Position numbers and translations under genes: made by a program. The notes below the pieces were generated by a model. The model saw only the letters and a program-made list of their open reading frames with translations, had not been told where the DNA came from and did no database searches. A stretch of DNA of 64,000 bases from an uncultured Gemmatimonadales bacterium (GTDB lineage: Bacteria; Gemmatimonadota; Gemmatimonadetes; Gemmatimonadales; GWC2-71-9). Below, in pieces: positions 8,193 through 33,179 of the stretch. The stretch covers positions 608,001 through 672,000 of the forward strand of contig CAWGSK010000012.1 in NCBI GenBank assembly GCA_963825055.1. Reading direction: 5' to 3'. Positions within the stretch are counted from its first letter, which is position 1. The number at the start of each line of letters is the position of its first letter.

Positions 8193-10030
8193 GGCTCCGT
8201 CGGTGGAGGTCCCCGCAAAATAGCGCCCCCCGGACGGTGGAAGTGGAGACCCCCGTCCTCCAGGCGCACGGGGGCGGGATCGGTGGAGAAGCCGTCATCT
8301 TCCGTCGTGAAGATCACCTCCCATTTCTTTCCCCCTCCCTTCCCGCCGGCCGGCGGCCACTCGACCCGCCCGGGCCCTTCCAGGCACACCACCACGGCCA
8401 GGGTTGCCCCGTCCTCCCGTGCCTTGCGGGTGAGCCACACGCTGCTGTTGTCCGGGGCCCCCGCATCGAGCAGGCCCGGCTGCAATGACCGCCGGAACCG
8501 CAGGAGGGCCCGGCAGAGCCGAAGCACCTGCGCATGGGCCGGGGCGTCCGGCTCGCTCCAGTCCAGGTGGCTGCGCCTGAATGTGGAGGGGGTCTGGGGA
8601 TCGGGAATCCGGGCGCGGCGCGAAGGATCGGCAAATGCGCGGAAGGCGGCGAACTCGTGGCGGCGCCCCTCGGTGACCAGCCGGCCGAGTGCATCGTTGT
8701 GGTCGGTGAAATACTGGAACGGGGTCGTGGCGGCCCATTCCTGTCCCATGAAGATGAGCGGGGTCTCCGGCACCGTAAGGAGGAGCAGCGTGGCCGCCCG
8801 CCAGGCATCGGCAGGAATTTCCCCGCTGAGTCTGTCCCCCATGGCGCGGTTGCCGACCTGGTCGTGGTTCTGCAGGCACACCACGAACTGCTCGAGCGGG
8901 CGCCCCCCCGGGTCGGTGCCGCGCCGGCGTCCGCTGACGGGCCCGTGCTGCCCCGTAAAGAACCAGCCGCGGCGGATACATTCGGCCAGCTCCGTTGTCG
9001 TCCCGCAGAAGTCCGCGAAATATCCCTCGTCATCCCCCGCGAGGCGCCGCCGGACGATGTGGTGGAAATCGTCCGCCCAGACCCCGTCGAGGCCATAGCC
9101 GTCCCCGGCTGCGGGACGGATCAGCGTCGACAGGTTGCGGTGGTCCTCCGCTATGACCACCACGGGCCGCGGGACTGCCGCCCGGACCCGGCGGGCGACC
9201 TCGGCCACGATGTGCTCACGGCTCTCGTCCACGATAGCGTGCGTGGCGTCGAGTCGCAGGCCGTCCATGTGGTAGTCCCGGATCCAGTGCATCGCGTTAG
9301 CCACGACGAATTCCCGCACGGTGGGGACGCCCCCGTCGAAGTTCACCGCGTCGCCCCATGGCGTGTCGTGGCGGTCCGTGAAGAAATCGGGGCTGTAACT
9401 CGCGAGGTACGCACCATCGGGTCCGAGGTGATTGTAGACCACATCGAGGAACACGGCGATCCCGGCGTGGTGGGCCGCATCCACGAGGGACCGGAGGTCG
9501 TCAGGCGTGCCGTAACAGCGGCAGGGCGCGAACAGCGCGACTCCGTCGTAGCCCCAGTTCCAGCGGCCGGCAAAGTCGGCAACCGGCATGAGTTCCAGCG
9601 CACCGATGCCGAGGTCCCGGAGATAGGGGAGGCGTTCGGCCACGGCGCTGAAGGTGCCGGCCGGCGTAAAGGTGCCGACATGCATTTCATAGAAGGTGAG
9701 GTCCTGGAGCGGAGGCGCCTGCCAACCTGCATCGGCCCACTGATACCGGGCAGGATCCACCACCAGCGAGGGACCGTGGACCCCCTCGGGCTGGAAGCGA
9801 GACGCCGGATCCGGGAGGAGCCGCCCGTCGGGGAGGCGGTAGCGGTAGCGGGCGCCGGCGCCCACCCCCTCCACCTGCCCCTCGAACCAGCCGTGGCCGG
9901 CGGCCTCGAGCTCCGAGACGAAGGGCATCCCGTCCGCAGACTCTCCGTCCACGGCCATGCGTGCGTGTGCCGTGGCCCACACCCGGAACAGAGTTCCCGA
10001 CGAGACCGGAGTCGCGCCGAACTCAGTCAG
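8189..10030 (-). CDS. treZ: Malto-oligosyltrehalose trehalohydrolase (GH13)
   Basis: FGA-FRVWA N-terminus, [49 protein letters not shown]; probable CTG start at 10030. Confidence 0.95.
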
Positions 10031-12005
10031 CCGGTGCCTCCCCGGCCCGGAAGGCCAGCATTCCGAGGGGCGGCAGGGTGATGTTGATCGACTGGGCCTG
10101 ACCGTGCCACTCGATGGGAGACGTCGAGACGCCGCCGAGGTTCCCCTGCCCACTGCCGCCGTACAGCTCGGCATCGCTGTTCAGGGCTTCGGCCCAGTAG
10201 CCGCCGCGTGGCACGCCGATCCGGTAGTTGGCCCGCAGCACCGGGGTGAAGTTGCAGGCGAAGACCAGCGTGTCGGCGGGATTCTCACCGTGGCGGAGGA
10301 AGGTGAGCGTGCTCTGTTCGGTATCGTTGCAGTCAATCCACTGGAAGCCCGCGGGGTCGGTGTCTTTCTGCCAGAGCGCCGGCTGGGCACGATAGAAGGT
10401 GTTGAGGTCCCGCATCCACCTCTGGAGGCCGGCGTGGGCGGGCGCATCCAGCAGGTGCCAGTCCAGGCTGCTGTCGTGGTTCCATTCCCGCCACTGCCCG
10501 ATCTCCCCGCCCATGAAGAGGAGTTTCTTCCCGGACTGGCCGTACATGTAGCCGAACAGCAGGCGCAGGTTGGCAAACCGCTGCCACTCGTCGCCAGGCA
10601 TCTTGCCGACGAGCGAGCCCTTCCCGTGCACGACCTCGTCGTGGCTCAGGGGAAGGACGAAGTTCTCCGTCCAGGCGTACATGCTCCGGAAGGTGAGTTT
10701 GTTGTGGTGATATTTGCGATGGACCGGGTCCTGGGCGAAGTACTCGAGCGTGTCGTGCATCCAGCCCATGTCCCACTTCATCCCGAAGCCGAGTCCCCCG
10801 ACGTACAGTGGGCGTGAGACCATCGGCCAGGCGGTGGATTCCTCCGCGGTGGTCTGCGTGTCGGGCTGGTGCAGGTAGACCTCGCGGTTGCACTGCCGGA
10901 GGAACTCGAGCGCTTCCAGGTTCTCTCGCCCGCCGTGGATGTTGGGCACCCACTCGCCCTCCTTCCGCGAGTAGTCGAGGTAGATCATGCTGGCGACCGC
11001 GTCCACGCGCAGTCCGTCGGCGTGGAAGACCTCGAGCCAGTACAGCGCATTGCTGAGCAGGAAGCTCCGCACTTCGTGGCGGCCGTAGTTGAAGATGAAG
11101 CTGTTCCAGTCGGGGTGGAAACCCTGCCTCGGGTCCCCGTGCTCATAGAGATGCGTCCCGTCGAAGTACCCCAGCCCGTGTTCGTCCGTGGGGAAATGGG
11201 ACGGGACCCAGTCGAGGATTACGCCGATGCCGTGGCGGTGCAGCTGGTCCACCAGGAACATGAAGTCCTGCGGGCTGCCATACCGCGATGTCGGCGCGTA
11301 GTAGCCCGTCGTCTGGTAGCCCCAGGACCCGTAGAACGGGTGCTCCATGACGGGGAGGAATTCCACGTGGGTGAAGCCCATGTGTTGCAGGTACTCCACC
11401 AGGAGCGGGGCCATCTCGCGGTAGCTCAGGTGCGCGGCGGGATCGCCGGGGCGGCGCCAGCTTCCCAGGTGCATCTCGTAGACGCTCATAGGCGCGTCCA
11501 GGGCGTTTTTCCCCGCCCGGTCGCGCATCCACTCGCTGTCGCCCCAGTCGTACTCGAGGGACCAGACCCTGGAGGCGGTCCGGGGCGCTTCCTCCGCGTA
11601 GGCGGCATAGGGATCAGCCTTGTCGGCCCCGTAGCCACCCGGCGTGTCGATCCGGTACTTGTAGGCCTGGCCCCGGGCCACGCCGGGAATGAAGCCTTCC
11701 CAGATCCCGGACGACCCGCGCCGGCTCAGGTGGTGCCGCCCCGGGTCCCAGTCGTTGAAGTCGCCGACGACGCTGACGGTCCCTGCATTGGGCGCCCAGA
11801 CAGCAAAGCGCACCCCGGGTGTTCCGTCCACCTCCATCAGGTGCGAGCCGAGCCGCTCCCAGAGCCGCAGGTGGTTGCCCTCGTTGAAGAGGTACAGGTC
11901 CTGGTCGGAGATGGCGGACCCTTCCTGCCATACGGGGCCGCGCTCCGGCGGTGCTGCCGGGGCCGTCGGGCGTCGGGCCCGTGGCTTGGATGTCGATTTT
12001 GCCAT
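10023..12005 (-). CDS. glgB: 1,4-alpha-glucan branching enzyme
   Basis: [59 protein letters not shown]. Confidence 0.98.
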
Positions 12006-12042
12006 ACTGCGTCACCTTCCCCGCCCGGGGCGGGCTCCGGCA

Positions 12043-15402
<3,360 letters not shown>

Positions 15403-15416
15403 GCCTCGCCTTTCGT

Positions 15417-17456
15417 CTAGAGGTAGTAGTCGAAGTCCTGCTCCGTCCTGAGACGCCGCCGCACGCGGAAGATGTGCGCGGGCACCGCCGTGGGTTCCAG
15501 CGCGACGTAGTTGACCGGTCCGTGCCAGAGGTAGCGGGCATCGCCCAGCAGGTCGTGGACCTGGTAGGGATGTCCGGTGTCGATCCCCAGGTCATCCAGT
15601 GCCAGGGTGACCCATCCCTGCTGGGCACGGTGCGGATCCAGGTTCACCACCACCAGCATGAGGTTCGTGCCGTCGCCGCTCACCTTGGAGTAGGCGATCA
15701 ATGCCGGATTGTCCACCGGGTGGAAGCGCAGCGAGCCATTGCGATGGAACGCGGCGTTGTCCCGCCGGATCGCGTTCACCCGCGTGATGAAATCGCGCAG
15801 GCTGCCCGGCTGGTCCAGGTCCCACCACCGTACCTGGTACTTCTCGGAATCCAGGTACTCCTCGGTGCCGGGGACTCCCCGGACGTCCACCAGCTCGAAC
15901 GCCGGTCCGTACACGCCGTAGCTGGCGGTGAGCGTGGCGGCGAGCACCAGCCGGGCGCGTGATGCTGCCCGCCCGCCGTTCTGGAGGTACTCGTGCAGGA
16001 TATCCGGGGTGTTCACGAAGAAGTTCGGCCGGAGGTACTCGCTGACCTCCGTCTGCGTGAGCTCGGTCAGGTAGTCCTCGAGCTCCGCCCGGGTGTTCCG
16101 CCAGGTGAAATAGGTATACGACTGCGAGAATCCCACCTTGGCCAGGTATTCCATCACCCGGGGGCGGGTGAACGCCTCGGAAAGGAACACCACGTCGGGG
16201 TGCCGGTTCCGAACTTCGCGGATCATCCATTCCCAGAAGGCAAACGGCTTGGTGTGCGGATTGTCCACGCGAAAGATCCGCACCCCGTGCTCCACCCAGA
16301 ACAGGACCACGTCGCGCAGCGCGGCCCACAGGCCCCGCCAGTCAGGGTTCTCGAAGTGGAGCGGATAGATATCCTGGTATTTCTTGGGCGGGTTCTCCGC
16401 GTACTGGATAGTCCCGTCAGGGCGATGGCGGAACCACTCGGGGTGCTCCCGCACCCAGGGATGGTCCGGGGCAGTCTGGAACGCGATGTCCAGGGCCACC
16501 TCCAGATCGAGCGCGGCGGCGTCACGGACGAACCGGTCGAAGTCCTCCAGCGTGCCGAGCTCGGGGTGGACGGCTGTGTGGCCACCCTCATCGGCCCCGA
16601 TGCCCCAGGGGCTGCCGGGATCGCCGGGGGAGGACACGGGATTGTTGTTGGGCCCCTTGCGGTGGGCCCGTCCGATCGGGTGGACCGGCGGCAGGTAGAC
16701 GACATCAAAGCCCATCGCGGCCACGTAGGAGAGCCGGTCAGCGGCGTCGCGCAGCGTCCCGTGGCGGCCGGGTTCAGGCGAGGCCGAACGCGGGAAGAAC
16801 TCGTACCACGCCCCGACCGCCGCCCGCTCGCGCTCGACCTCCACCCGCAGCGCCTTATCATACCGGGCCGCGCGGGTGCGGTCGGGATGGAGCCGTGCAG
16901 CGGTGGCGACGGCTTCGGCAAGCGCGGCCTTTACCCGCTCATCCTGCGCACCGGATCCGCCGAGCACGCCGGCCGCCTCGCGCAGGTCAGCCGCATCGGG
17001 GCCGGCCGCCCTGTCCGCAGCGGCCCGCAGGAGTTCGGCGCCTTCCAGCAGCTCGCTGGAGACGTCCTGTCCGGCCTCGACTTTCTTGGCCAGCCCGGCG
17101 CGCCACGTCCCAAAGGCGTCGATCCAGCCCTCGACCGTATACTCCCAGAGCCCCAGACGCGGCAGCACGAAGCTCCCGCGCCAGCGATCGTTCCCGAGGG
17201 GTTCCATGGCGGATTCCTGCCATTCCCCCTCCCCTTCCCGCCAGCGCAGCACCGCAGCCACGGCATCGTGGCCTTCGGTGAACACGTCTGCCTCGACCGT
17301 CAGTGCGTCGCGCACGACGCGCTTGACCGGAAAGCGGCCGCAGTCCACCTCCGGACGGACGCCCTCCACCATCACCCGGGTGGGCGGCTGGGCCGGCGCG
17401 GCACGCCCGGCCGTGGCTGCCGACTTGCGGCGCGTCCCTGGCCGGGCATCAGTCAT
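15417..17456 (-). CDS. glgE: Alpha-1,4-glucan:maltose-1-phosphate maltosyltransferase
   Basis: [56 protein letters not shown]. Confidence 0.98.
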
Positions 17457-20400
17457 CGGCTGCCCTCCGGGGACACTGGACTCGAGGGCGTGCGGAACAC
17501 CATGACCGAGCGGCCCCGGACGCGGGCCCGCCCGCCGCGGCGCGCGGAGCGACGCGCCCAGTGGAGGCCGCCCGTGTCCAGAATGCGCTCCCAGGCCCGA
17601 CCCTCGCCGGCCGGCGGGATGCTGAACGTGATGGTCTCGGCGCCTGCGTTGAGCAGGAGCAGGAAGGTGTCATCAGTGATCGGCTCGCCATCGGCATCCG
17701 TCTCCTCGATGCTATCGCCCGCGAGGCGTACCATCAGCGCGCGGGCATAATCGGTGTCCCAGTCCCGGTCGGTCATCTCCCGGCCGTCAGGCTCATACCA
17801 CGTCAGGTCCTGCACGTCGCGGCCGCGAATCCGCCGGCCCTGGAAGAACTGGCGGCGCCGGAACACCGGATGGTCGCGGCGCAGGGAAATCACGTAGCGG
17901 CAGAAGGCGAGGAGGTCCCGGTCGGGCTTGTCGAGGTCCCAGTGGATCCAGCTGAGGGGGTTATCCTGGCAGTACGCGTTGTTGTTGCCGAGCTGGGTCC
18001 GGCCCATTTCGTCGCCGGCCACCAGCATCGGTACCCCCTGACTCAGCAGCAGGGTCGCCAGGAAGTTGCGTTTCTGGCGCTGGCGGAGGGACTGGATGGC
18101 CTGGTCGTCAGTCGGGCCCTCGACGCCGCTGTTCCAGCTCAGGTTATTGGATTCGCCATCGCGGTTCTCCTCGCCGTTGGCTTCATTGTGCTTCTCATTA
18201 TAGGACACCAGGTCCTGCAAGGTGAACCCGTCGTGTGCCGTGACGAAGTTGATACTGGCGTACGGACGGCGCCCGCTGCGGCTGTACAGGTCGCTGCTGC
18301 CGGCGAGCCGGGTGGCGAATTCGGACATCTGGCCGCCGTCGCCGCGCCAGAAGCGACGGACGTTGTCGCGGTATTTCCCGTTCCACTCGGTCCAGAGCAC
18401 GGGAAAGTTCCCGACCTGGTACCCACCCTCGCCAACGTCCCAGGGCTCCGCGATCAGCTTCACCTGGGAGAGGACTGGGTCCTGGTGAATGATATCGAAG
18501 AAGGCGCTCAGCTTGTCGACCGCAAAGAGCTCGCGCGCCAGCGCGCTGGCAAGGTCGAACCGGAAGCCGTCCACCCGCATCTCGAGGACCCAGTACCGCA
18601 GGCTGTCCATGATCAACTGGAGCACGCGCGGGTTCAGCATGTTGAGCGTGTTGCCGGTGCCGGTGAAGTCCTCGTAGAAGCGGGGCTCCCTCGGCGACAG
18701 CCGGTAATAGGCGGCGTTGTCGATCCCGCGTAGCGAGAGCGTGGGCCCCAGGTGGCTTCCCTCCGCGGTATGGTTGTAGACCACGTCGAGAATGACCTCG
18801 ATCCCCGCGGCGTGGTACGCCCGCACCATCGACTTGAATTCGCGGACCGCCTCGCCGGGCGCCGGGTTGGCGGCGTACCGCAGGTCCGGCGCGAAGAAGG
18901 CGAGGGTGTTGTAGCCCCAGTAGTTGGTCAGCCCGTTGTCAACGAGGTGGCGGTCAATCGCGTGATGGTGCACCGGCATGAGCTCGACCGCCGTGACGCC
19001 GAGGCTCCGGACATGGCGGATCACCGGCTCGGACGCGAGGCCGGCGTAGGTTCCGCGCAGCGGTTCCGGCACTTCCGGGTGCAGGCGCGTGAATCCCTTG
19101 ACGTGCAGTTCGTAGATGATCGTCTCGTGCCACGGGGTAGCGGGTGCGCGATCGTCCGCCCAGGTGAACGCGGTGTCGACCACCGCCCCGAGCGGGGCAA
19201 AGGGCGCATTGTCGCGCTCGTCCATGCTGAGATCGGCATCGGGCCCGTTCACCGTGTAGCCGAACATCTCATCCGCCCACGCGAGCGGACGCCCGATCGC
19301 CTTGGCATACGGATCCAGCACGACCTTGTTCGGATTGAACCGGTGGCCATGCCTGGGGTCCCACGGCCCATGGACGCGGTATCCATAGAGCTGGCCCGGG
19401 CGCACCCCGAGGACGCGGCTGTGCCAGACCATGTCCGTCTGCTCCACCAGCGGAACCCGGATGGATTCCCTTTCCGCCCCCGGCCCGTCGAACAGGCACA
19501 GCTCGACCGCCGTGGCGTGCTCCGAAAAAATCGCGAAGTTCACGCCAAGGCCGTCCCAGGTGGCCCCGAGGGGATACGGGGTGCCGGGCTGTGTTCGCAT
19601 CACGGGCAGGGCTCCAGTCGGGTATCGTGGGCCATCGGGCACCACGGCGGTGCCGGCCAGCAGGGGAAACCGGTCCAGCGGCCCGTCGACGGGAAGTCCG
19701 GGACGTTCCCGTCCCTCGACGGGCAGGGGGAGGCCGGCAAAGACGTCCTTCAGCCGCACATCCCGCCAGTCCTGAGGAAGAACGATAGTCGTATCGGCCC
19801 AGAGGCCCGAATCCCAGGGCCAGGCGTCCCCCTGCGCCAAGTGACCGGCCACGAGCCGGGGCACGGCCCCCACCAGGACCCGATCCCCGTGGCGCCGGGC
19901 GAACGCCAGGAGCGAGCGGGACATGGGCCCACGAACCTCGAGGGGCTCCCAGGTGCCCTCCAGGAACAGGCCCGGCATGGCGGAGCGAAGCCGCAGCAGG
20001 ACGGCGTGGACCCACAGCTTGATGCGGCCGTCCAGCCGGTCGCGCCGAAGTCCCTCCAGAAACCGCTCGTCCGTCGCCGCCTCCCGGTCCAGGTGCGAGA
20101 GCAACTCCTGCCGGCGACGGAAGTCCACCGGGCGCCGGTTGTCGGGATCCACGAGCCGGAGGTCCCAGAGCTCGCTGCCCTGGTAACAGTCCGGCACGCC
20201 CGGGGCGAGGTGTCGCAGGGCGACCTGGGACAGGCCGGCCACCATGCCCGCATCGGCCACCCTTCGCTGGAAGGGCACGAAGGACTCGAGGAATCTCCCC
20301 GAGCGGGGCCCGGTGAGACAGGCGCGCACCAGGGCGGTCATGCCGGCCTCATATTCCTGGCCCGGTGAAGCCCAGCTGGTGTGCCGCTTGGCCTCACGCA

Positions 20401-22516
20401 CCACCTTGCGCATGTATTCCTCGAGTCGATCCGCCAGCGCCTCACGCCCTGGCGCATCCATCGGATCCCCCGGCGCGGGCCAGACCCCGGTCAACACCTG
20501 GTAGAAGTGGTACTCATCGTTGCGGTCGGGAAGAAGCAGGCCCTGGCGGCGCGGGGCGCGCACCAGCCGGCTCCACGCGCGGACAGCGGCGCTCCAGGCC
20601 TCCGGCATCTCGGACAGCACGCCGATCCGGACCCGGACGTCTTCGCCGCGTTTCATGTCATGGGTCGCGGTCGCGAGCATGGCGGCGGGCCAGTGCTCCC
20701 GGCGGCGCGCGCACGCCGCGTGGAACTCTCCGGGCGCCATGCTGAAACGGGCGGGCTCGCCACCCACCTCATTGAGCGAGACCAGGAGGTTGTAGCGGTA
20801 GAACGCGGTGTCCTCGATGCCCTTGGCCTGCACCGGTCCGGTGTACTGCTGGAACCGCCGCCGGAAATGGCGGCGCTCACGCGAGAGCGCGGTCGGTGCC
20901 ACTGCCTCGCGCGGCGGCAGCAGTACGCGTTCCAGGAACTGCAGGATGGAGGGCTCCATCGTGGGATTGCGCCGCCGGACCCCGGCGAGCGCGCGCGTGA
21001 CGGTCGCGCGGTCCTCCTCACTCGCCTCACCCCCCGCCACATAGGTCCGGTAGACCGGGAAGCATGCCACGAGCTCCTGCAGCACATCCCGGAGGCTGTT
21101 GAGGGTGAAGTCCCGCGTCCGCCGGTCCATCTCCGAGAGCCGGTTGAGGTCGTGGGCGAGGACATTCAGCTCACTCGCCATGGCATTGGCCATGATGTGC
21201 TTCTTGGCCGCGTACGCGACATCCGCGAAGGGGGCACGTTTCCCGGTGAACTGCCGGCAGATGCGCCAGAGCGGCGTTTCGCCCTCCGGCTCCACCAGGA
21301 CGGCCTGGACGTCGTTCAGGAAGTCGTACCCTGTCGTCCCCGCAACCGGCCACGCCACCGGCAAGGACTCGGCCGGGCCCAGCACCTTCTCGACCACGAT
21401 CCACGGGGCGCCCGATGTCAGGCGCATGGCGCCGCGGGATTCCCTCGACAGGCGATCCAGGTAGCCGGCCGGGTCGTACAGCCCGTCCACGTGGTCCACC
21501 CGGACCCCGGTGACGCCACCCGCCTCCATGAGGTCGAAGAGCCGGCGATGCACCGCATCGAACACGTGCGGTTCCTGCACGCGGAGGCCGCCAAGCTCGT
21601 TGATATCGAAGAAGCGCCGGTAATTGATCTCGTGGCTCGCCGTCCGCCAGTACGCCAGGCGCCAGTGCTGCCGCTGCAGCAGCCCGTGCAGGGCATCGAA
21701 GCTCCCCGGCTCACCCGCCCTGCCGTTCATCGCGGCGACCGCCTGTCTGATGCCGTCCATGAGGACGGGTTCGCGTGACGCCAGCGCGGCGAGACGAAGT
21801 CGCTCCGCTTCCGCCAGGGCCGCGCGGTCCTCCCGCCAGCGTTCTCCCTCCTCACCCCGGTCCGGCAGCGATCCAAGGCGGGCCATGATGCTCCGCAGTT
21901 CCGCCAGTTCCGGTGATCCCGCCCCCCGGACGGGCGCGAGGCGGTCGAGGGCGTGCACCAGGATGATGGGCCATGTGGCCGGGCTGACCGGGAGGTTCAG
22001 CGCGCCGTAGTGCAGCTGGAAGGCGCCGTCGTCGAAGTCGAGACGGAGGCCCCCGTCCTCCAGCACGTCGCCGTACGGCTTGCCGAGTACGGGCAGGAGC
22101 ACCTTCCCCGCGAGTTCGTCCTTGAGCGGATACCAGTCGATATCGAACGCCGAGGCCCATCGCGAAGCCGGCCCGTGCGCAAGCACGTCCCGCCACCACG
22201 TGTTCGCTCCCGGCTCGAGCCCGACATGGTTCGGGACGATGTCCGCGACGAGTCCCATCCCGTGCGACGCGAGCGCAGCCGCGAGCTGGTCGAATCCCTG
22301 ATCGCCCCCGAGCTCCGGATTGATCCGGCCGTGGTCTACCGTATCGTACCCGTGACGGCTGCCCGGGCGGGCCATGAAGAAGGGAGAGGTATAGAGATCG
22401 GTGATGCCGAGGGTGTGCAGATACGGTACGAGGGCCGCAGCTTCCGCGAAGCCAGCGTCCCGGTGGAGCTGCAGGCGGTAGGTGGCGAGAGGAATGCGGG
22501 CGGGGCGGTCAGCCAG
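17453..22516 (-). CDS. treY: In-frame fusion of malto-oligosyltrehalose synthase (TreY, N-terminal) and glycogen debranching enzyme (GlgX, from ~19600)
   Basis: Tre[73 protein letters not shown]. Glg[56 protein letters not shown]. No stop between them; start either CTG 22516 (good SD) or ATG 22582. Confidence 0.92.
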
Positions 22517-22538
22517 GAGGGACTCCTCTGGATTGGTG

Positions 22539-22571
22539 AGTCGGCAGTCGGCAGTCGGCAGTCGGCAGTCG
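22539..22571. repeat. Heptamer tandem repeat (AGTCGGC) x~4.7
   Basis: Read directly; same unit recurs at 34394-34448. Confidence 0.95.
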
Positions 22572-22708
22572 TCCCTAAACATGATATGTCGTCATCGATC
22601 ATGCTGTGACGAGTGGCACCAGCCCGGCCTGAAGCGCGCCGGCATCGTTCGCGGTGTCATCCGTGCCGCCGTGATTGTCAGTTCCCTCACGGGTGCTGCG
22701 CTTCCGCC

Positions 22709-25285
22709 CTAGTAATCAAAACCGAAGCTCACGTACAGGGCGGTGCGCTCCTCGTTGTTGGCCAGGGAGATGGTGAGGTTGTTCTGGGGATTGATGAACC
22801 CGAGCGACACGCCGCCGCCGAAGGCCGTGTGCCAGGTATCGGACCGCTCGCCATCGGCAAACACGCGCCCGACATCGCCAAAGCCGAACAGCATGAGCCG
22901 GACCGGGAAGATGTACAGTGGTACGCGGCCGACCGGAACGCGGAGCTCGGCGTTGCCGTAGAGTGATCCCTCGCCGGCAAACCGGTCCTGGGCGTAACTC
23001 CGGAGGTTGCCGACCCCGCCGAGGTAGGCCGCATCGTAGAACGGGAACTCCCCCCACACGCGCCGTCCGCCGGCGCGGAGGGCGATGACGGGCGCCATCG
23101 GCACCGGCAGCGCATGGTAAGCCCGCGCCTCAGCGGTCAACGCCCCGTAGGCGGCGTCGAGATCCCAGACGGCGGGATAGTACTCTCCCGTGAAGGCGAG
23201 GACGGTGCCGGAGGCGGCGTAGTGCGGCGACTCGCGGGTATCTCTGCGGGCTCGGAGCTCGACACCGGCCTGGCCGACCGACCCCAGCCCCGCGGCGCCC
23301 AGCATGGCGAGCCGCCCGGCATCATCAGAGACCGTCCCGTAGCGGACGACGGGGCCCACCGAGAACTCCGTCCAGGGCTTCGGATTGTACGCCAGCGCCA
23401 TGTGCAGGCGGTATTCGCCGCGGTCCACGCGCCACTCCGGTCCATCGCCGCCCGCCGTCGCGTTGCCGAAGCCGTAGAAGCGCAGGACACCCAGCTCCGA
23501 CCAGGCACCCTCCATGCGCAGGTGCCAGCCGCTGGACTCCTGGCGCACGTCCCCCTCCAGGTTCACTCCCGATGCGTCATACCCCGCTGCATGCTGGTAA
23601 CGAAGCTCCCAGTCGCTGGAATAGGGACGCTTGCGGAAGCCCCCCTTCTGGTAGCGCGCCCCCAGGGTGTACACGACACCCAGGTCATCCTCGAAGGCCA
23701 GGTTGACCAGCGGTCCAACGTACCCCCCGTGATCTGGTGGAGGAGGGACCAGGGAATCCCGCCCCGGGACGAGCGGCCGGCGGTCGAGCGAATCAGGCGG
23801 ACCGTACTCGATGCCACGGGTGGGACCCTCGTCGTAGAGCCGTATGTATCCCTCCGGCCGCGAGTCCACCAGGTGGTTGTCGCCGTTCCCGCCGATTACA
23901 CGGACCACGATCGGCGAATGCCGGGCACCCGCGATGGTGGCGGAGTCGTCGCCGCCGTGCAGGTAGACCCGGAGCTGAGAAGTCTCTTCCGGGTGGAAGG
24001 TGCGGTGAAACCACCTCCCCACCCCGCTGCTGTCTCGCGCGTCGGCCAGTGACAGCGTCACCGACCCGTCGCCGGCGTATTCCACCCGGGCTCTCTCTGC
24101 CGCGTCGGTGGCATGAATGTCCACCACGCCCGCCAGGGACCGGTAGAATTTTGCGGCAATGTCGGGCAGGCCCGTCCTGCGGGCGCGGAGCTTCCCGGCC
24201 AGCCGGGCGGTGTCGGCCACGGAATAGCTGGGCGGCAGCTGTGCCACCGCCCGGCTGATCACGCGGTCGTCCAGGCGTGCCTGCAGCGCCCGGGCGACAG
24301 AATCGAACACCGGGCGTTCCAGGCCGGAGAGGAGCCGCCGGTCGAGCATGACACTGTTCAGCGTCAGGCCCTTGAGCGAGGGGTACGTGGAGTCGAATGC
24401 GATCAGCTTCGGTACGACGAACCGGCCGACCGAAATCAGGAAGCCGTCGAAATGGACGAAGGCCTGGTCCCGGTCCCGCGGGATGGGAACCCACCGCAGG
24501 TGGTCGCCGGCGGGCCGCCGGATCCATCGCCACTGGTCGGCGTGACGGTCCCAGTCGTTGATCCACATGTCGAACAACCGCGCCATGAGATACGTGCGCG
24601 CGTCCACCTGGTGTTCCGGATCCTCGTTCAGGCGCTCGAACAGCTCCTCGGTCCCCACGATCTTTCGCGCGCCGCGGAAGCCGGGCGTGTCGTCTGGCCC
24701 CTCGTCCGGCCGTTGCTCGATCAGGCCCAGCATGCCGGCGAAGCGCTCCCGGAACTCACCCAGCCGGGGGTCGTCCGGCATCACGCGCAGCCGCGGATTC
24801 ACGTGGGGGATGCCAGTGGCGTCAAGCAGCTCGCCAACCACGAGCCCGCCGAGCGGGTACATCGAGCTCACCTCGTCCTGGAAGAGGCGGTGCACCAGGC
24901 TGCCGCGCAGGTCCGCCGGGACGATGGTGGTCAGGTCCTTGTCCACCGACCGGAACACGAACTCCTGCCCCTCTGCATTCTCGAAATGGAGGGAACTGGT
25001 CTGCATCCCGCCGCCAACCTCGGTGGGAGTGAGGCCGCCGCCAAAGGTGGCGAGGTCGAGCACTGCCACGCGCACCGGCGTGTCCCAGGCGCGCCGATGA
25101 TTGCCGCCGAAGAGGAACCGGTGGAAACCGCCTGCCCGGTACCGGGCCCCGGGCACGATGGTGACGGAATCCGCTCCCGGCGGCGGGGGCTCATGTCCCT
25201 GGAGACGGTCCTGGGCGGCAAGCAGAGCCGGCAGGCACGCCAGTGACGCGGCGAGCAGGGACACAGGCAACGAGGGCACGGTCAT
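22709..25285 (-). CDS. Omp85/BamA-TamA-like outer membrane protein with N-terminal atypical kinase-like domain
   Basis: Signal peptide from ATG 25285 (ATGA overlap); GGGMQT, DWDRHADQW, PIPRDRD; C-terminal barrel strands with LRSY-DRF, YGNAELR, FGDVGRV and terminal SFGFDY. Confidence 0.85.
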   Translation of the reverse strand: MTVPSLPVSLLAASLACLPALLAAQDRLQGHEPPPPGADSVTIVPGARYRAGGFHRFLFGGNHRRAWDTPVRVAVLDLATFGGGLTPTEVGGGMQTSSLHFENAEGQEFVFRSVDKDLTTIVPADLRGSLVHRLFQDEVSSMYPLGGLVVGELLDATGIPHVNPRLRVMPDDPRLGEFRERFAGMLGLIEQRPDEGPDDTPGFRGARKIVGTEELFERLNEDPEHQVDARTYLMARLFDMWINDWDRHADQWRWIRRPAGDHLRWVPIPRDRDQAFVHFDGFLISVGRFVVPKLIAFDSTYPSLKGLTLNSVMLDRRLLSGLERPVFDSVARALQARLDDRVISRAVAQLPPSYSVADTARLAGKLRARRTGLPDIAAKFYRSLAGVVDIHATDAAERARVEYAGDGSVTLSLADARDSSGVGRWFHRTFHPEETSQLRVYLHGGDDSATIAGARHSPIVVRVIGGNGDNHLVDSRPEGYIRLYDEGPTRGIEYGPPDSLDRRPLVPGRDSLVPPPPDHGGYVGPLVNLAFEDDLGVVYTLGARYQKGGFRKRPYSSDWELRYQHAAGYDASGVNLEGDVRQESSGWHLRMEGAWSELGVLRFYGFGNATAGGDGPEWRVDRGEYRLHMALAYNPKPWTEFSVGPVVRYGTVSDDAGRLAMLGAAGLGSVGQAGVELRARRDTRESPHYAASGTVLAFTGEYYPAVWDLDAAYGALTAEARAYHALPVPMAPVIALRAGGRRVWGEFPFYDAAYLGGVGNLRSYAQDRFAGEGSLYGNAELRVPVGRVPLYIFPVRLMLFGFGDVGRVFADGERSDTWHTAFGGGVSLGFINPQNNLTISLANNEERTALYVSFGFDY

Positions 25286-26430
25286 TCGAGGTAGCTCGAG
25301 AAGGCCTCGGTCCCCCTGCCCTCGGCGTTCACGGTGACCACGCCGAGGCGGACCCGGCCGTCGTGAAAGATGTCGAGCCGCATGAATCCCGACTCGGCCG
25401 CTGCGTATTTCGTGTCCGAGCCATACTGGACCGCGGACACGTGACCGTAGTAGCCGGTGCCGCTCACCAGCAGGTGGCGGGCGTTCGAACCCGCCAGGAC
25501 CTGGAGATCGTGGTCGTGGCCGCTGGCGTAGACCAGCGGTTTGTACTTGTCGAACACCTGCTCGAGCGCGTGCCGCATCTCGCGGTTCGCGGGGCCGGAG
25601 ATGTCCTGCTCGCTGACGCCCCGTTGCCGCGCCATGGGCATGGCCGAGCCGAGGATGGGCAGTGGGATCCAGAGCCACTTCCGGAACCGGCGGAGGGGGA
25701 AGATCTGGTCGGTCAACGGGAAATACCCGCCGTGGGTTCCCCCGCTCTCGAGTGGATGGTGGCCCACGACCACGACGGCGCGATCCCCCGCCCCGGCGAG
25801 ATCGGCCGCGAGTGAGTCCAGCACCTCCTGCGGCTCGTCGGCGCTGCAGGGGTTGGGGAATTCGGGAGAGGGCTTCTGCCACTTGTGCAGCCACCACTGG
25901 GTGTCGAGCAGCACCAGCCTGAGGCGCAGGCGGATATCCACGGCCACGGGCCCGGGACATCCGCTGGAGGGAAGCAACTGGGCCAGGGTGTCACCCGCGA
26001 CCGTGATGATGGAATCCTCGCGGAGGATGGCGTTCCATCCGTCAGCGCCCATGTAGGCCCAGTCGTGATTGCCGGGGATGAAGATCGCAGGTGTCCCGGT
26101 GGTCGTTGCCACCCGCACCTGGCGCAGCAGGCGGCGCTCAGCCTCGTCGCGGTCGAGCGCGTCCGCGGCCGGAATCCCCCGTGGGTACACGTTGTCGCCG
26201 AGGAAGACAATCTCGGCCTTGTCCTTCATGGCGGTGGCCTGGCGGGCCAGTTCCTGAAGGACCGGGTCGTTCTCGGCCGGCGCGCCGGCATCGCCGACCA
26301 GGAAGAGGGTGGTCTCGACCTCGTCGGGCAGCGCGGCCACGACCGGCGGCGTAGCAGCCGGCGGGTGCCCTGCGCATGCCGCCACCGGCAGCAGCAGGAG
26401 GACGGCACCCCACTTCCAGTACTGCCCCAT
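25282..26430 (-). CDS. Metallophosphoesterase lipoprotein with purple acid phosphatase signature
   Basis: Lipobox VAAC; DAG, GDNVY, GNHD, VVGH, GHDH; ATG 26430 overlaps upstream TGA (26436 alternative). Confidence 0.92.
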   Translation of the reverse strand: MGQYWKWGAVLLLLPVAACAGHPPAATPPVVAALPDEVETTLFLVGDAGAPAENDPVLQELARQATAMKDKAEIVFLGDNVYPRGIPAADALDRDEAERRLLRQVRVATTTGTPAIFIPGNHDWAYMGADGWNAILREDSIITVAGDTLAQLLPSSGCPGPVAVDIRLRLRLVLLDTQWWLHKWQKPSPEFPNPCSADEPQEVLDSLAADLAGAGDRAVVVVGHHPLESGGTHGGYFPLTDQIFPLRRFRKWLWIPLPILGSAMPMARQRGVSEQDISGPANREMRHALEQVFDKYKPLVYASGHDHDLQVLAGSNARHLLVSGTGYYGHVSAVQYGSDTKYAAAESGFMRLDIFHDGRVRLGVVTVNAEGRGTEAFSSYLE

Positions 26431-27374
26431 CACCATTCGCGGTAGACCGTCACCATGGCCGGAGTCTTCGTGGCCTCGTCGGAGAGGATGAGGAGGCCAT
26501 CCGGCGTAATGGCGATGCCTTCGGTCTGGCGGTGCTCCTTCGGCAGCTTCCAGACCCGGAGCACCTTTCCCTCGGGCGTCACAATGGCCATCAGTTCGTC
26601 GATGCCGTCCACCATCACGTAGTTGCCCGTCCGGGGGTCCACCTCGATGCCCGACGGATGGAACTCATCGTGATCTTCGCCCTTGAAGGCCGCGAGGGGA
26701 ATGCGCATTCGCGAGAGCCGGCGGCCCACGCCCGCCCCCAGCTGCCACCGGTAGATGACGACGTGACCCTCGAGTTCCTTCCCGTGGGTGTTCTTGCATG
26801 CAAGCAGCAGCGACTCGATGGCGGGCGCGTAGGCCAGTCCCTCCATCTCGCATTCCTTGCCGAGCCGTGTGTCGCGGATGGTGAACGTGACATGCTCGCC
26901 CTCGTCCCCCTCGGACATCTCGTAGAGCTCGGCGTTGCTGGCCAGCAGGTAGACCCGGCCGCGCGCCACCGCGATCCCCTCGAAATCCTCGTGCAGCATG
27001 TGGTTGCCCACCAGGAACTGCTTGAGAACGACGCCCTGGCGATAGTCGATCTCGTAGACAATGCCGCGCTCGTCGTCATGGGTCAGCAGGCGGTCGTCCG
27101 GCGTGAGGGCGAGCCCGCTGATTTCGTTGAGCAGGTCGGGCATCATCCAGCGCGCGATCGGCGCCCCGAGGCCATCGTGCTTCAGTACCCGGGCCGTGTC
27201 TCCCCCGGCGCTGTCACCGGGCGTGGCCGCCTGCCCCGAAAGGCTGTCGAACCGGGTTGCTCTCGCGCTCAGTTCGCCGTGGTTCACCGCGGCCACGGCG
27301 GGTCCCCGCTCGCGGCAGGCACCGGCCAGGAGCGACGGCAGGACCAGAAGCAGTGCGATCCGTCGTTCAGGCAT
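26430..27374 (-). CDS. SdiA-regulated/YjiK-like beta-propeller exported protein (probable lipoprotein)
   Basis: LNEISGLA, HDDE, DFEGIA, EMEGLAY, PSGIE, QTEGIA, SDE repeats; signal ending LAGAC. Confidence 0.85.
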   Translation of the reverse strand: MPERRIALLLVLPSLLAGACRERGPAVAAVNHGELSARATRFDSLSGQAATPGDSAGGDTARVLKHDGLGAPIARWMMPDLLNEISGLALTPDDRLLTHDDERGIVYEIDYRQGVVLKQFLVGNHMLHEDFEGIAVARGRVYLLASNAELYEMSEGDEGEHVTFTIRDTRLGKECEMEGLAYAPAIESLLLACKNTHGKELEGHVVIYRWQLGAGVGRRLSRMRIPLAAFKGEDHDEFHPSGIEVDPRTGNYVMVDGIDELMAIVTPEGKVLRVWKLPKEHRQTEGIAITPDGLLILSDEATKTPAMVTVYREW

Positions 27375-28446
27375 GGGCCAGTGCATCGGAGAGGATGACC
27401 TCCGCGTCTTCAACCCGGTTCCCCACTTCGGCCCGGATGGCCGTCAGCACCTCATCCGCCGGGGTCTTCCTGCGGAGCCGGATCAGGTAATACAGTTCCG
27501 AGGGCTTCCCCTCATTGGTGATCACCTCGTCGAGGCGCCATCGCTTGGTCGTGCCGTCCAGGATGTCCTCTGCGCCCTTCTGCACGTCCGCGATGTCCTG
27601 TGTCGTCATCCAGAGCACGGCGTTGTAGCGCGATTTCTTCTTGCCGCTCGAGCCGATGATCTTGCGGAGCCGCTCGAATCGGTCGGCCAGAGCGTTGGCC
27701 TCCTTGCGGGTGAGCGAGAGCACGAGGTCGCGGTCAGGCACGGCCTGGCCGCCGTTCCCCGTGGCGAGGGCCGAAAGGGGCTCGGTCCAGGTCGCGGAGG
27801 GCCGGGGCTCCAGCACGCTCCGGCCAAAGTCCGTCCGCCAGATGGTCAGGAGCGTGAAGTTGAACACCATGGAAAGCAGGAAGCCCACCGTGGGCGCCTG
27901 GACGCCGGCGGAAAGGCCAACGCCGATCGCCAGAAAAATGAAGACCGCGTCCCGCGGGTCCTTGAGCGTGTTCCGAAAGCGCACCCCGGCCACGATGCCT
28001 GCCAGGCTGAAGGCCAGGGCGAGGCTGTTCCGCACGATCAGCACGATTCCCGAAACCACGATGGGCAGGATGATCAGCGTCTGCACGACGGACTGGCTGT
28101 AGCCGCGGACCTTCCAGGCGGACATGTAGACCCAGGCGACCGGCAGCATCAGGAGCAGCGTGCCCAGCATCATCGTGCTGGCCACGATGATGAGGTTCAG
28201 CCGGTCCGGCAGCTCCAGCTGCGGGGACGTGAACGTATCGAGATTGAGTCCGTCCTCCAGCACGCGAGGCGTGCTGGTGAGCTGCTCGAGGCGCTCCCCG
28301 GAGAACATGACCCCGGTTTCCGGGACCAGCATCACGAGGGCCGTCGTAATTCCGACGAGCACCACGTAATAGGCCAGCAGCCGCCGCACGGGCGACTGGG
28401 ATCCTATCGCGGCGAAGTCGATCAGCCTTGTCAGGAAACGCATCAC
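27367..28446 (-). CDS. DUF4956 family membrane protein (MgtC-related fold) with soluble C-terminal domain
   Basis: NSLALAFSLAGIVAGVRFRNTLKDPRDAVFIFLAIGVGLSAG is the characteristic segment; multiple TM helices. Confidence 0.85.
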   Translation of the reverse strand: MMRFLTRLIDFAAIGSQSPVRRLLAYYVVLVGITTALVMLVPETGVMFSGERLEQLTSTPRVLEDGLNLDTFTSPQLELPDRLNLIIVASTMMLGTLLLMLPVAWVYMSAWKVRGYSQSVVQTLIILPIVVSGIVLIVRNSLALAFSLAGIVAGVRFRNTLKDPRDAVFIFLAIGVGLSAGVQAPTVGFLLSMVFNFTLLTIWRTDFGRSVLEPRPSATWTEPLSALATGNGGQAVPDRDLVLSLTRKEANALADRFERLRKIIGSSGKKKSRYNAVLWMTTQDIADVQKGAEDILDGTTKRWRLDEVITNEGKPSELYYLIRLRRKTPADEVLTAIRAEVGNRVEDAEVILSDALAHA

Positions 28447-32646: not shown

Positions 32647-33129
32647 TCAGCGGGACTCGCCATCGCGCCCGATGCGGGAGTGCACACCCTGGCGGAGCCA
32701 GTTGAAACTGCGCTCGAGGTACTCCATCCCGACCAGCACCAGCAGCGCCACCACGGTCACCGCAAATGCGGCCGGCAGGTAGCCCAGGCCGATCGCGGCC
32801 CCGATGGCGGCGAGCAGCCAGACCACCGAGGCGCTGGTCACTCCCACAACGATCCCATCACGCGACAGGATCACCCCGGCCCCCAGGAAGCCGATGCCGG
32901 TAACCACCTGGCCCAGCACCCGCGTCGGGTCATTGGGGCCACCAAGCGCCGCGCCGAGCTGCACGAAGAACACCGTCCCGAGACACACGAGGACGCTCGT
33001 CCGCATCCCGGCCGGTTTCCCGCGAACCTGGCGCTCGAGCCCGATGGCTCCGCCGCAGGCCAGGCCCGCGCCGACGCGGATCCAGAACTCGGCGTTCGCG
33101 GGGTCGAGAAAAGGCTCTGCGGGCAGCAT
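32647..33129 (-). CDS. MgtC/SapB family membrane protein (second paralog)
   Basis: [41 protein letters not shown]. Confidence 0.93.
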
Positions 33130-33179
33130 GGACGCTCCGGGGAGGGAGGGATGGTGGGAAGATAATGGCGGAGAGTGAA

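Follow-up and report, generated by a model that had tools for sequence, protein, structure and literature searches.

A kinase-fold domain on an Omp85 barrel in an uncultured Gemmatimonadales bacterium, and a possible periplasmic phosphorylation module with exchangeable inner-membrane partners

The window analysed here, a stretch of 64,000 nucleotides from an uncultured Gemmatimonadales bacterium, encodes kinase-Omp85, an 858-residue protein in which a kinase-fold domain precedes an outer-membrane barrel of the Omp85 type, within a unit of four overlapping genes. The periplasm is generally regarded as containing no ATP, and exported kinase-fold proteins are common, which raises the question of where their phosphoryl donor comes from. 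The locus suggests one possible arrangement: a kinase anchored in the outer membrane and facing the periplasm would phosphorylate an acceptor in the envelope, the phosphoryl donor would be passed outward by a co-encoded inner-membrane protein, and a neighbouring phosphatase would reverse the kinase's mark. The inner-membrane partner would be swappable: this locus has DUF4956, a subclade of the Gemmatimonadales has an NTT-like pair, and Bacteroidota and Ignavibacteria have PycTM. Taken as a whole, this proposal is given a little under even odds, and its parts are graded separately below.

On the predicted structure, residues 36-386 of kinase-Omp85 almost certainly adopt a bilobed kinase fold, as a first-pass annotation made from the sequence alone had proposed. 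The model of the isolated domain (predicted local distance difference test, pLDDT, 93.7) superposes best on Bacillus cereus CotH (5jda; Z 14.8, root-mean-square deviation 4.2, 251 aligned residues; VIA fold search), followed by PI4KII-alpha (Z 14.2), CtkA (Z 13.1), and PI4KIII-beta and HipA (11.5), and among the matches listed 50 of 50 are chains of the protein-kinase-like superfamily. Foldseek concurs (PI4KII-alpha, E 1.2e-5), and the leading families are those that the annotation had named. As the top fold matches are tied, no substrate class can be assigned to the domain. Sequence searches returned far less: a Pfam and NCBIfam scan of residues 1-600 gave zero matches, phmmer against the PDB gave none, a profile search of the same database gave only CtkA (E 0.16), and an atlas search with the domain returned clusters without names, CotH and HipA being leads below 0.9. 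Kinase-Omp85 gives no match to the CotH family (PF08757) at its gathering cut-off, and 4 of 87 members match it weakly (best E 0.0048). When the domain is aligned by hhalign with a set of four Pfam-CotH sequences, the alignment is weak (probability 3%) and places DWD on the NWD of CotH and WVPIPRDRD on its WIPWD, in keeping with the earlier suggestion that DRHxDQ and RDRD are variants of a catalytic and a metal-binding loop. The spacing between D246 and D271 is 25 residues; in Bacillus subtilis CotH the two aspartates reported as essential for catalysis, D228 and D251, lie 23 apart (PMC7821199).

The motifs quoted in the first-pass annotation were each located in the 858-residue open reading frame (ORF), namely VGGGMQT at residues 90-96 (24998-25018), FRSVDK at 111-116 (24938-24955), LFDMWINDWDRHADQW at 237-252 (24530-24577) and PIPRDRDQAF at 267-276 (24458-24487); the span first assigned to LFDMWINDWDRHADQW, about 24530-24566, began correctly and ended slightly short. 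The residue set of the kinase superfamily is present, and from the secondary structure and the CotH profile alignment we infer that D246 is the catalytic Asp, D271 a metal-binding Asp, R112/K116 the basic residues of β3 and D137 the acid of αC. Among the best 120 homologues by whole-protein score (42-89% identity, chosen without reference to motif), R112, K116, D137, E190, D244, D246, R247, H248, D271, R272 and D273 are each retained in 120/120, as are Q95 and T96 of the Gly-rich loop, and Q251 is replaced by the canonical Asn in 19. A second set of 83 domains drawn from the genome samples (42 from Gemmatimonadota and 41 from Bacteroidota), aligned without a motif filter, keeps D246 in 80 (41/42 and 39/41, respectively) and D271 and D273 in 82 each (41/42 and 41/41), with H248 varying in six of the 42 Gemmatimonadota domains. 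Neither of the two checks named beforehand thus counts against the kinase proposal: the predicted structure has a bilobed kinase fold, and the DRH and DRD residues are kept in homologues. Judged from this conservation, the motifs are not chance. Catalytic activity of the domain is considered very probable.

The family comprises 2468 proteins among 8000 candidates, and its N-terminal region is matched by 2806 cluster representatives. Five kinase-only homologues (P0361, P0367, P0370, P0371 and P0382) of 381-395 residues lack a barrel, begin with a hydrophobic segment and look, from their sequences, like complete proteins. A second copy of kinase-Omp85 in the genome of the window (G000:C34:120297-122750; L080) is 42% identical with its motifs intact, and the operon partners are not adjacent to it.

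The C-terminal part is an Omp85 barrel, matched by PF01103 over residues 620-843 (E 5.6e-10; 39.7 bits against a cut-off of 24) and by TamA (Z 28.3) and BamA (Z 27.5) in fold comparison. No POTRA family was matched in the protein by Pfam or NCBIfam, and the confident model assigns residues 36-386 to the kinase fold and 387-490 to an all-β domain, so that a kinase-like domain indeed stands in place of POTRA domains, as first proposed; an atlas search gave no named family for residues 384-520. When the barrels are superposed on those of BamA (8pzu, 6lyr, 8bo2), BamA residues 201-203 coincide with model residues 127-131, and BamA 385-391 with 506-516. Both BamA segments are periplasmic POTRA positions, and since the kinase overlays them the model has it in the periplasm, which the domain probably faces. 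Of the two roles first offered for the barrel, anchoring the kinase or exporting it, the model thus favours the former. By analogy with PlpD the barrel is read as an anchor rather than a translocase. PlpD likewise presents an enzyme domain on an Omp85 barrel, but this domain is patatin-like; it is reported to have proved periplasmic, overturning an earlier claim of surface exposure (PMC11116518).

Table 1. Features of the kinase-Omp85 locus (positions in the window)
Feature	Position	Strand	Basis
Kinase-Omp85 gene, 858 residues: signal peptide, kinase-fold domain, β-rich domain and 16-strand barrel	22709..25285	-	Pfam; AF2 model (pLDDT 91.9, predicted template modelling score 0.89)
Predicted Sec signal peptide, residues 1-24	25214..25285	-	Judged by hydropathy and sequence
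CotH/PI4KII/HipA-like kinase-fold domain, residues 36-386 (predicted)	24128..25180	-	Domain model pLDDT 93.7; CotH Z 14.8; Foldseek PI4KII-alpha
Gly-rich loop GGGxQT (residues 91-96) and β3 R112...K116	24938..25018	-	Q95, T96, R112, K116 in 120/120
Catalytic loop DWDRHxDQ (D246) and metal-binding loop PRDRD (D271, D273)	24458..24577	-	Conservation, alignment
Short all-β domain, residues 387-490, two GGxD/GGxGD turns, β-roll-like	23816..24127	-	Ten short strands in model
16-strand Omp85 barrel, residues 521-858, loop-6 LRSY motif, aromatic C-terminus	22712..23725	-	TamA/BamA match; DSSP strand count
Purple-acid-phosphatase-type metallophosphoesterase, predicted lipoprotein (VAAC)	25282..26430	-	PF00149 E 1e-6; GDAG, GDNVY, GNHD, VVGHHP, GHDH
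SdiA-regulated/YjiK-like β-propeller, predicted exported	26430..27374	-	PF06977 E 7.9e-6; invariant D/E residues
DUF4956 inner-membrane protein, MgtC-like transmembrane region, first of four genes	27367..28443	-	PF16316 E 6.3e-8

The four genes of the unit overlap stop to start (Table 1), with DUF4956 (beginning at 28443) overlapping the propeller gene (27374), the propeller stop overlapping the phosphatase start (26430), and the ATG of the kinase-barrel gene (25285) overlapping the TGA of the phosphatase gene upstream. A 1083-residue alternative from 25960 was rejected, as it runs across the phosphatase gene in a different frame and the nearest homologues have lengths of about 850-870 residues. 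At its N-terminus the most hydrophobic 15-residue windows begin at residues 6-10, and the model has a low-confidence helix at 8-29. A scan of the locus for promoters and terminators stayed at chance level, and a complex prediction of residues 36-500 with the propeller, which scored 0.00, speaks neither for nor against an interaction. A DUF4956 paralogue in the same genome gives a weak MgtC match, and a DUF4956 profile search of solved structures returned no relative, neither VTC nor MgtC chains being matched. Bacteroidota, a phylum with genetically tractable laboratory species, have a fused form in which phosphatase, kinase and barrel make up a single chain of about 1245 residues, and a strict lipobox pattern is found in at least 11 of 20 such fused chains.

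The kinase domain occurs in 48 of the 151 Gemmatimonadota genomes sampled and in 84 of 201 genomes of the Bacteroidota, the phylum of a Chitinophagaceae genome. Neighbourhoods were compared within about 19 kb, a span for which the background rate of a single-copy gene is 0.5%. In the Gemmatimonadota sample each of 40 genomes contributes one locus, even where it has several copies; these are the 47 other positive genomes less seven whose matches were partial or weak. The Bacteroidota sample holds 40 loci from 39 genomes picked for long fused frames, so that its count of fusions reflects this selection. DUF4956 stands in 18 of the 40 Gemmatimonadota loci and an NTT-like gene in 11, and none has both. 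The same loci carry a purple-acid-phosphatase-type gene in 18 cases, a second phosphatase in seven, a propeller in 12, PPK1 in nine (eight with a CYTH domain in front) and a Ser/Thr kinase in 17 (background about 23% of windows). The Bacteroidota loci feature PycTM (29/40), class III cyclase-like genes (23/40) and propellers (13/40), with DUF4956 in none, and 79 related loci feature PPK1 (21), DUF4956 (28), PycTM (11) and NTT (4). At the level of the 151 genomes, DUF4956 is found in 33 of the 48 that are kinase-positive and a close NTT orthologue in 12 of the other 15, and the kinase is present in 17 of 18 genomes having a full-length close NTT. Loci of the NTT type have the kinase-barrel gene between a plain NTT and an NTT-HEAT gene, all on the same strand. 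Alongside its conserved kinase site, kinase-Omp85 has a phosphatase as companion and DUF4956, NTT and PycTM as mutually exclusive partners, one of which is related to ATP/ADP carriers. The CYTH-PPK1 fusions, of about 1020-1070 residues (L012:10586-13798, L002:4858-7917 and L038:8605-11730), often adjoin DUF4956 or kinase-Omp85.

DUF4956 is also found beside other exported genes of kinase type. Of 32 genomes having DUF4956 and no kinase-Omp85, 29 contain a Pfam CotH gene or C1, an exported family of about 340 residues with kinase-like invariant residues (L200:5999-7012 and 14 others in L191-L210). C1 occurs in 47 of the 151 genomes and adjoins DUF4956 in 15 of 20 hand-picked loci lacking kinase-Omp85. 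It is probably CotH-like by sequence and unconfirmed as a kinase: Pfam CotH matched one of 15 members (E 0.017), no PDB match was obtained, and hhalign gave a probability of 0.3% against both the kinase-Omp85 domain and CotH. As C1 was moreover found from those same loci, counts that use it serve as leads only. In three related genomes (L224, L225 and L226) an NTT pair away from the kinase-Omp85 gene sits within about 6 kb of C1 genes, and three other genomes with such a pair showed no link to C1. The genome of the window contains a second DUF4956 gene (C34, about 17900-24200; L223:7887-14156), followed by a TPR protein, a CotH/β-helix protein and a metallophosphoesterase, a set that, on its predicted functions, is the same triad of membrane protein, exported kinase and phosphatase. 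It adjoins genes which, from their motifs, resemble sulfate-activation and flippase genes. Elsewhere, a 943-residue frame (L197; G109:C7:73000-88000) matches both DUF4956 and PPK1 seeds, an apparent fusion, and lies beside CHAD, SixA, PPK1 and Ppx genes.

Several known systems come close to this one. CotH is the best structural match, is likewise exported and has a similar P-x-D-x-D metal loop, but kinase-Omp85 falls below the Pfam cut-off, has a short DRHxxQ/N catalytic loop and is fused to an Omp85 barrel. PI4K type II, CtkA, HipA and Fam20, which are atypical kinases of the DRHxxN type (as partly seen in the CtkA alignment), have the DRH catalytic loop in common with kinase-Omp85 and match its fold (Z 10-14), but at 8-15% identity their substrate class is not transferable. 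The pel loci of Gram-positive bacteria are reported to carry cotH, a gene for a polyphosphate polymerase and DUF4956 contiguously (10.1101/768473; 10.1101/2024.04.20.589940; PMC12345266), and the authors of the last did not find the trio outside pel loci. Kinase-Omp85 loci likewise have DUF4956 and polyphosphate-making neighbours, but the polyphosphate partner is the CYTH-PPK1 fusion rather than a stand-alone VTC-like protein. A kinase circuit with interchangeable inner-membrane partners would be a variant of the CotH-DUF4956-polyphosphate cassette.

The layout of the protein itself is not new, having been tabulated in 2014. Heinz and Lithgow (2014; PMC4104836) defined a 'Metallo' subfamily of Omp85 proteins as metalloproteases, and the word 'kinase' is absent from the main text, yet the CtkA-kinase column of Table S3 is filled in 62 of 62 Metallo rows (Phyre2 to 3akj at 99.6-99.8). 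Seventeen of these rows have no phosphatase match, 15 of them labelled 'truncated', and one row of Table S2 combines PF01103 with PF08757. The kinase-on-Omp85 layout, short form included, was therefore already recorded, though not discussed, and since 17 of 62 members lack PF00149 the subfamily as published includes the short form. Kinase-Omp85 too has a CtkA-like domain ahead of a POTRA-less barrel, but PF00149 lies here in a separate overlapping upstream gene with purple-acid-phosphatase motifs, so that this short form is split rather than truncated. Homology to the Metallo subfamily rests on fused Bacteroidota proteins of the same architecture, of which P0187 matches the kinase domain. Full-text literature searches, which left most subscription journals outside their coverage, found no functional study of kinase-Omp85, although one may exist. 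Because the layout is already catalogued, interest lies in the system rather than in this copy.

The proposed mechanism has a donor step and an acceptor step. Delivery of the donor by the inner-membrane partner is judged an even chance. If it occurs, ATP is the likeliest donor, at slightly better than even odds, and polyphosphate the less likely alternative; the NTT-like carriers point to ATP and CYTH-PPK1 to polyphosphate or to regeneration of ATP. For the acceptor, the likeliest candidate is a protein or glycoconjugate of the envelope, located on the inner side of the outer membrane. A purely polyphosphate-based explanation was downgraded, as just one of 40 Bacteroidota loci has PPK1 close to the gene and the only PPK1 in the genome of the window, which is 87% complete, is unfused and lies about 435 kb away.

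Several observations weigh against the proposal, beginning with these PPK1 counts. Eleven of the 40 loci in each sample have no DUF4956, NTT or PycTM; related loci are not independent in any count, the NTT loci are confined to one Gemmatimonadales subclade (three changes on a quick tree), so that the NTT link may be a single event, and many Bacteroidota loci share synteny, so that few independent events stand behind the counts. The NTT-like proteins score 25-43 bits against a TIGR00769 cut-off of 387, and no NTT match was found in the same incomplete genome. Placement of a passenger domain by AlphaFold is not proof of topology. The catalytic loop of most members has Gln in place of the usual Asn, and L170, L173 and L174 are degenerate copies without the catalytic Asp, likely pseudokinases by sequence. 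DUF4956 resembles MgtC, which is described in the literature as a regulator, and literature searches found neither DUF4956 nor PycTM assigned a role in transport; the NTTs characterised so far are nucleotide importers, and those of free-living bacteria are described as uncharacterised and of unexplained role (PMC5381601).

That direction of transport suits an inward flow, in which the kinase-fold domain, its barrel and the exported phosphatases together process external organophosphates, nucleotides or polyphosphate and the partner imports the product. At least one exported phosphatase-like gene occurs in 28 of the 40 Gemmatimonadota loci, and PPK1, Ppx, SixA and PAP2 are recurrent neighbours. 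Such scavenging is nonetheless thought unlikely, as it leaves a full kinase active site without a role, no phosphate-uptake genes appear among the annotated recurrent neighbour families, and barrels of the BamA/TamA type are closed to the outside in structures cited by Heinz and Lithgow (PMC4104836). Trans-envelope signalling, rated distinctly unlikely, would instead make DUF4956, PycTM or NTT-HEAT receptors or targets rather than donor conduits: the kinase and phosphatase would act on their periplasmic face, and they would be coupled to Ser/Thr kinases or cyclases in the cytoplasm. The regulatory-type MgtC/ACT build ascribed to DUF4956 in the literature fits this, as do the class III cyclase-like and Ser/Thr kinase genes counted above, but the cyclase loci belong mainly to one syntenic group, Ser/Thr kinases are abundant by expectation, and the source of the donor is left unexplained.

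The barrel might otherwise bring the kinase to the cell surface in the manner of a type V autotransporter, as an effector acting on other cells with ATP from outside, an option raised for the Metallo proteins by Heinz and Lithgow (PMC4104836). The β-rich segment ahead of the barrel recalls passenger domains, and CtkA, a close fold match, is called proinflammatory in its PDB title. This is placed lower still, for in the model the kinase lies on the side where POTRA domains would be, kinase-Omp85 itself is without POTRA, a comparable claim about PlpD has been overturned (PMC11116518), at least 11 of 20 fused forms carry a lipobox, and the link with inner-membrane genes is unaccounted for. Least probable, and very improbable in itself, is a pseudokinase scaffold on an outer-membrane assembly factor that binds nucleotide or partners without catalysis; the change of Asn to Gln in the catalytic loop, a Lys after β3 with an Arg at its end, and the three degenerate copies are what such a scaffold could display, but of the 83 domains from two phyla, 80-82 retain the aspartates for catalysis and metal binding, and a phosphatase is fused or adjacent.

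Beyond the four-gene unit, an MgtC-family gene (32647-33165, minus strand) lies 4 kb upstream; among the loci compared it does not recur as a neighbour. Downstream, 10023-22582 (minus strand) includes a 1709-residue ORF; judged from sequence, this region is a putative glycogen/trehalose cluster and the ORF apparently a maltooligosyl-trehalose synthase fused to a GlgX-like debranching enzyme.

The broadest form of the periplasmic module, in which several diderm phyla possess an outer-membrane-anchored kinase and phosphatase circuit fed by DUF4956, NTT and PycTM as interchangeable exporters of ATP or polyphosphate, is put forward as speculative and rather doubtful. Were it true, three orphan membrane families would share a function, and the donor supply of exported CotH-type kinases would be explained.

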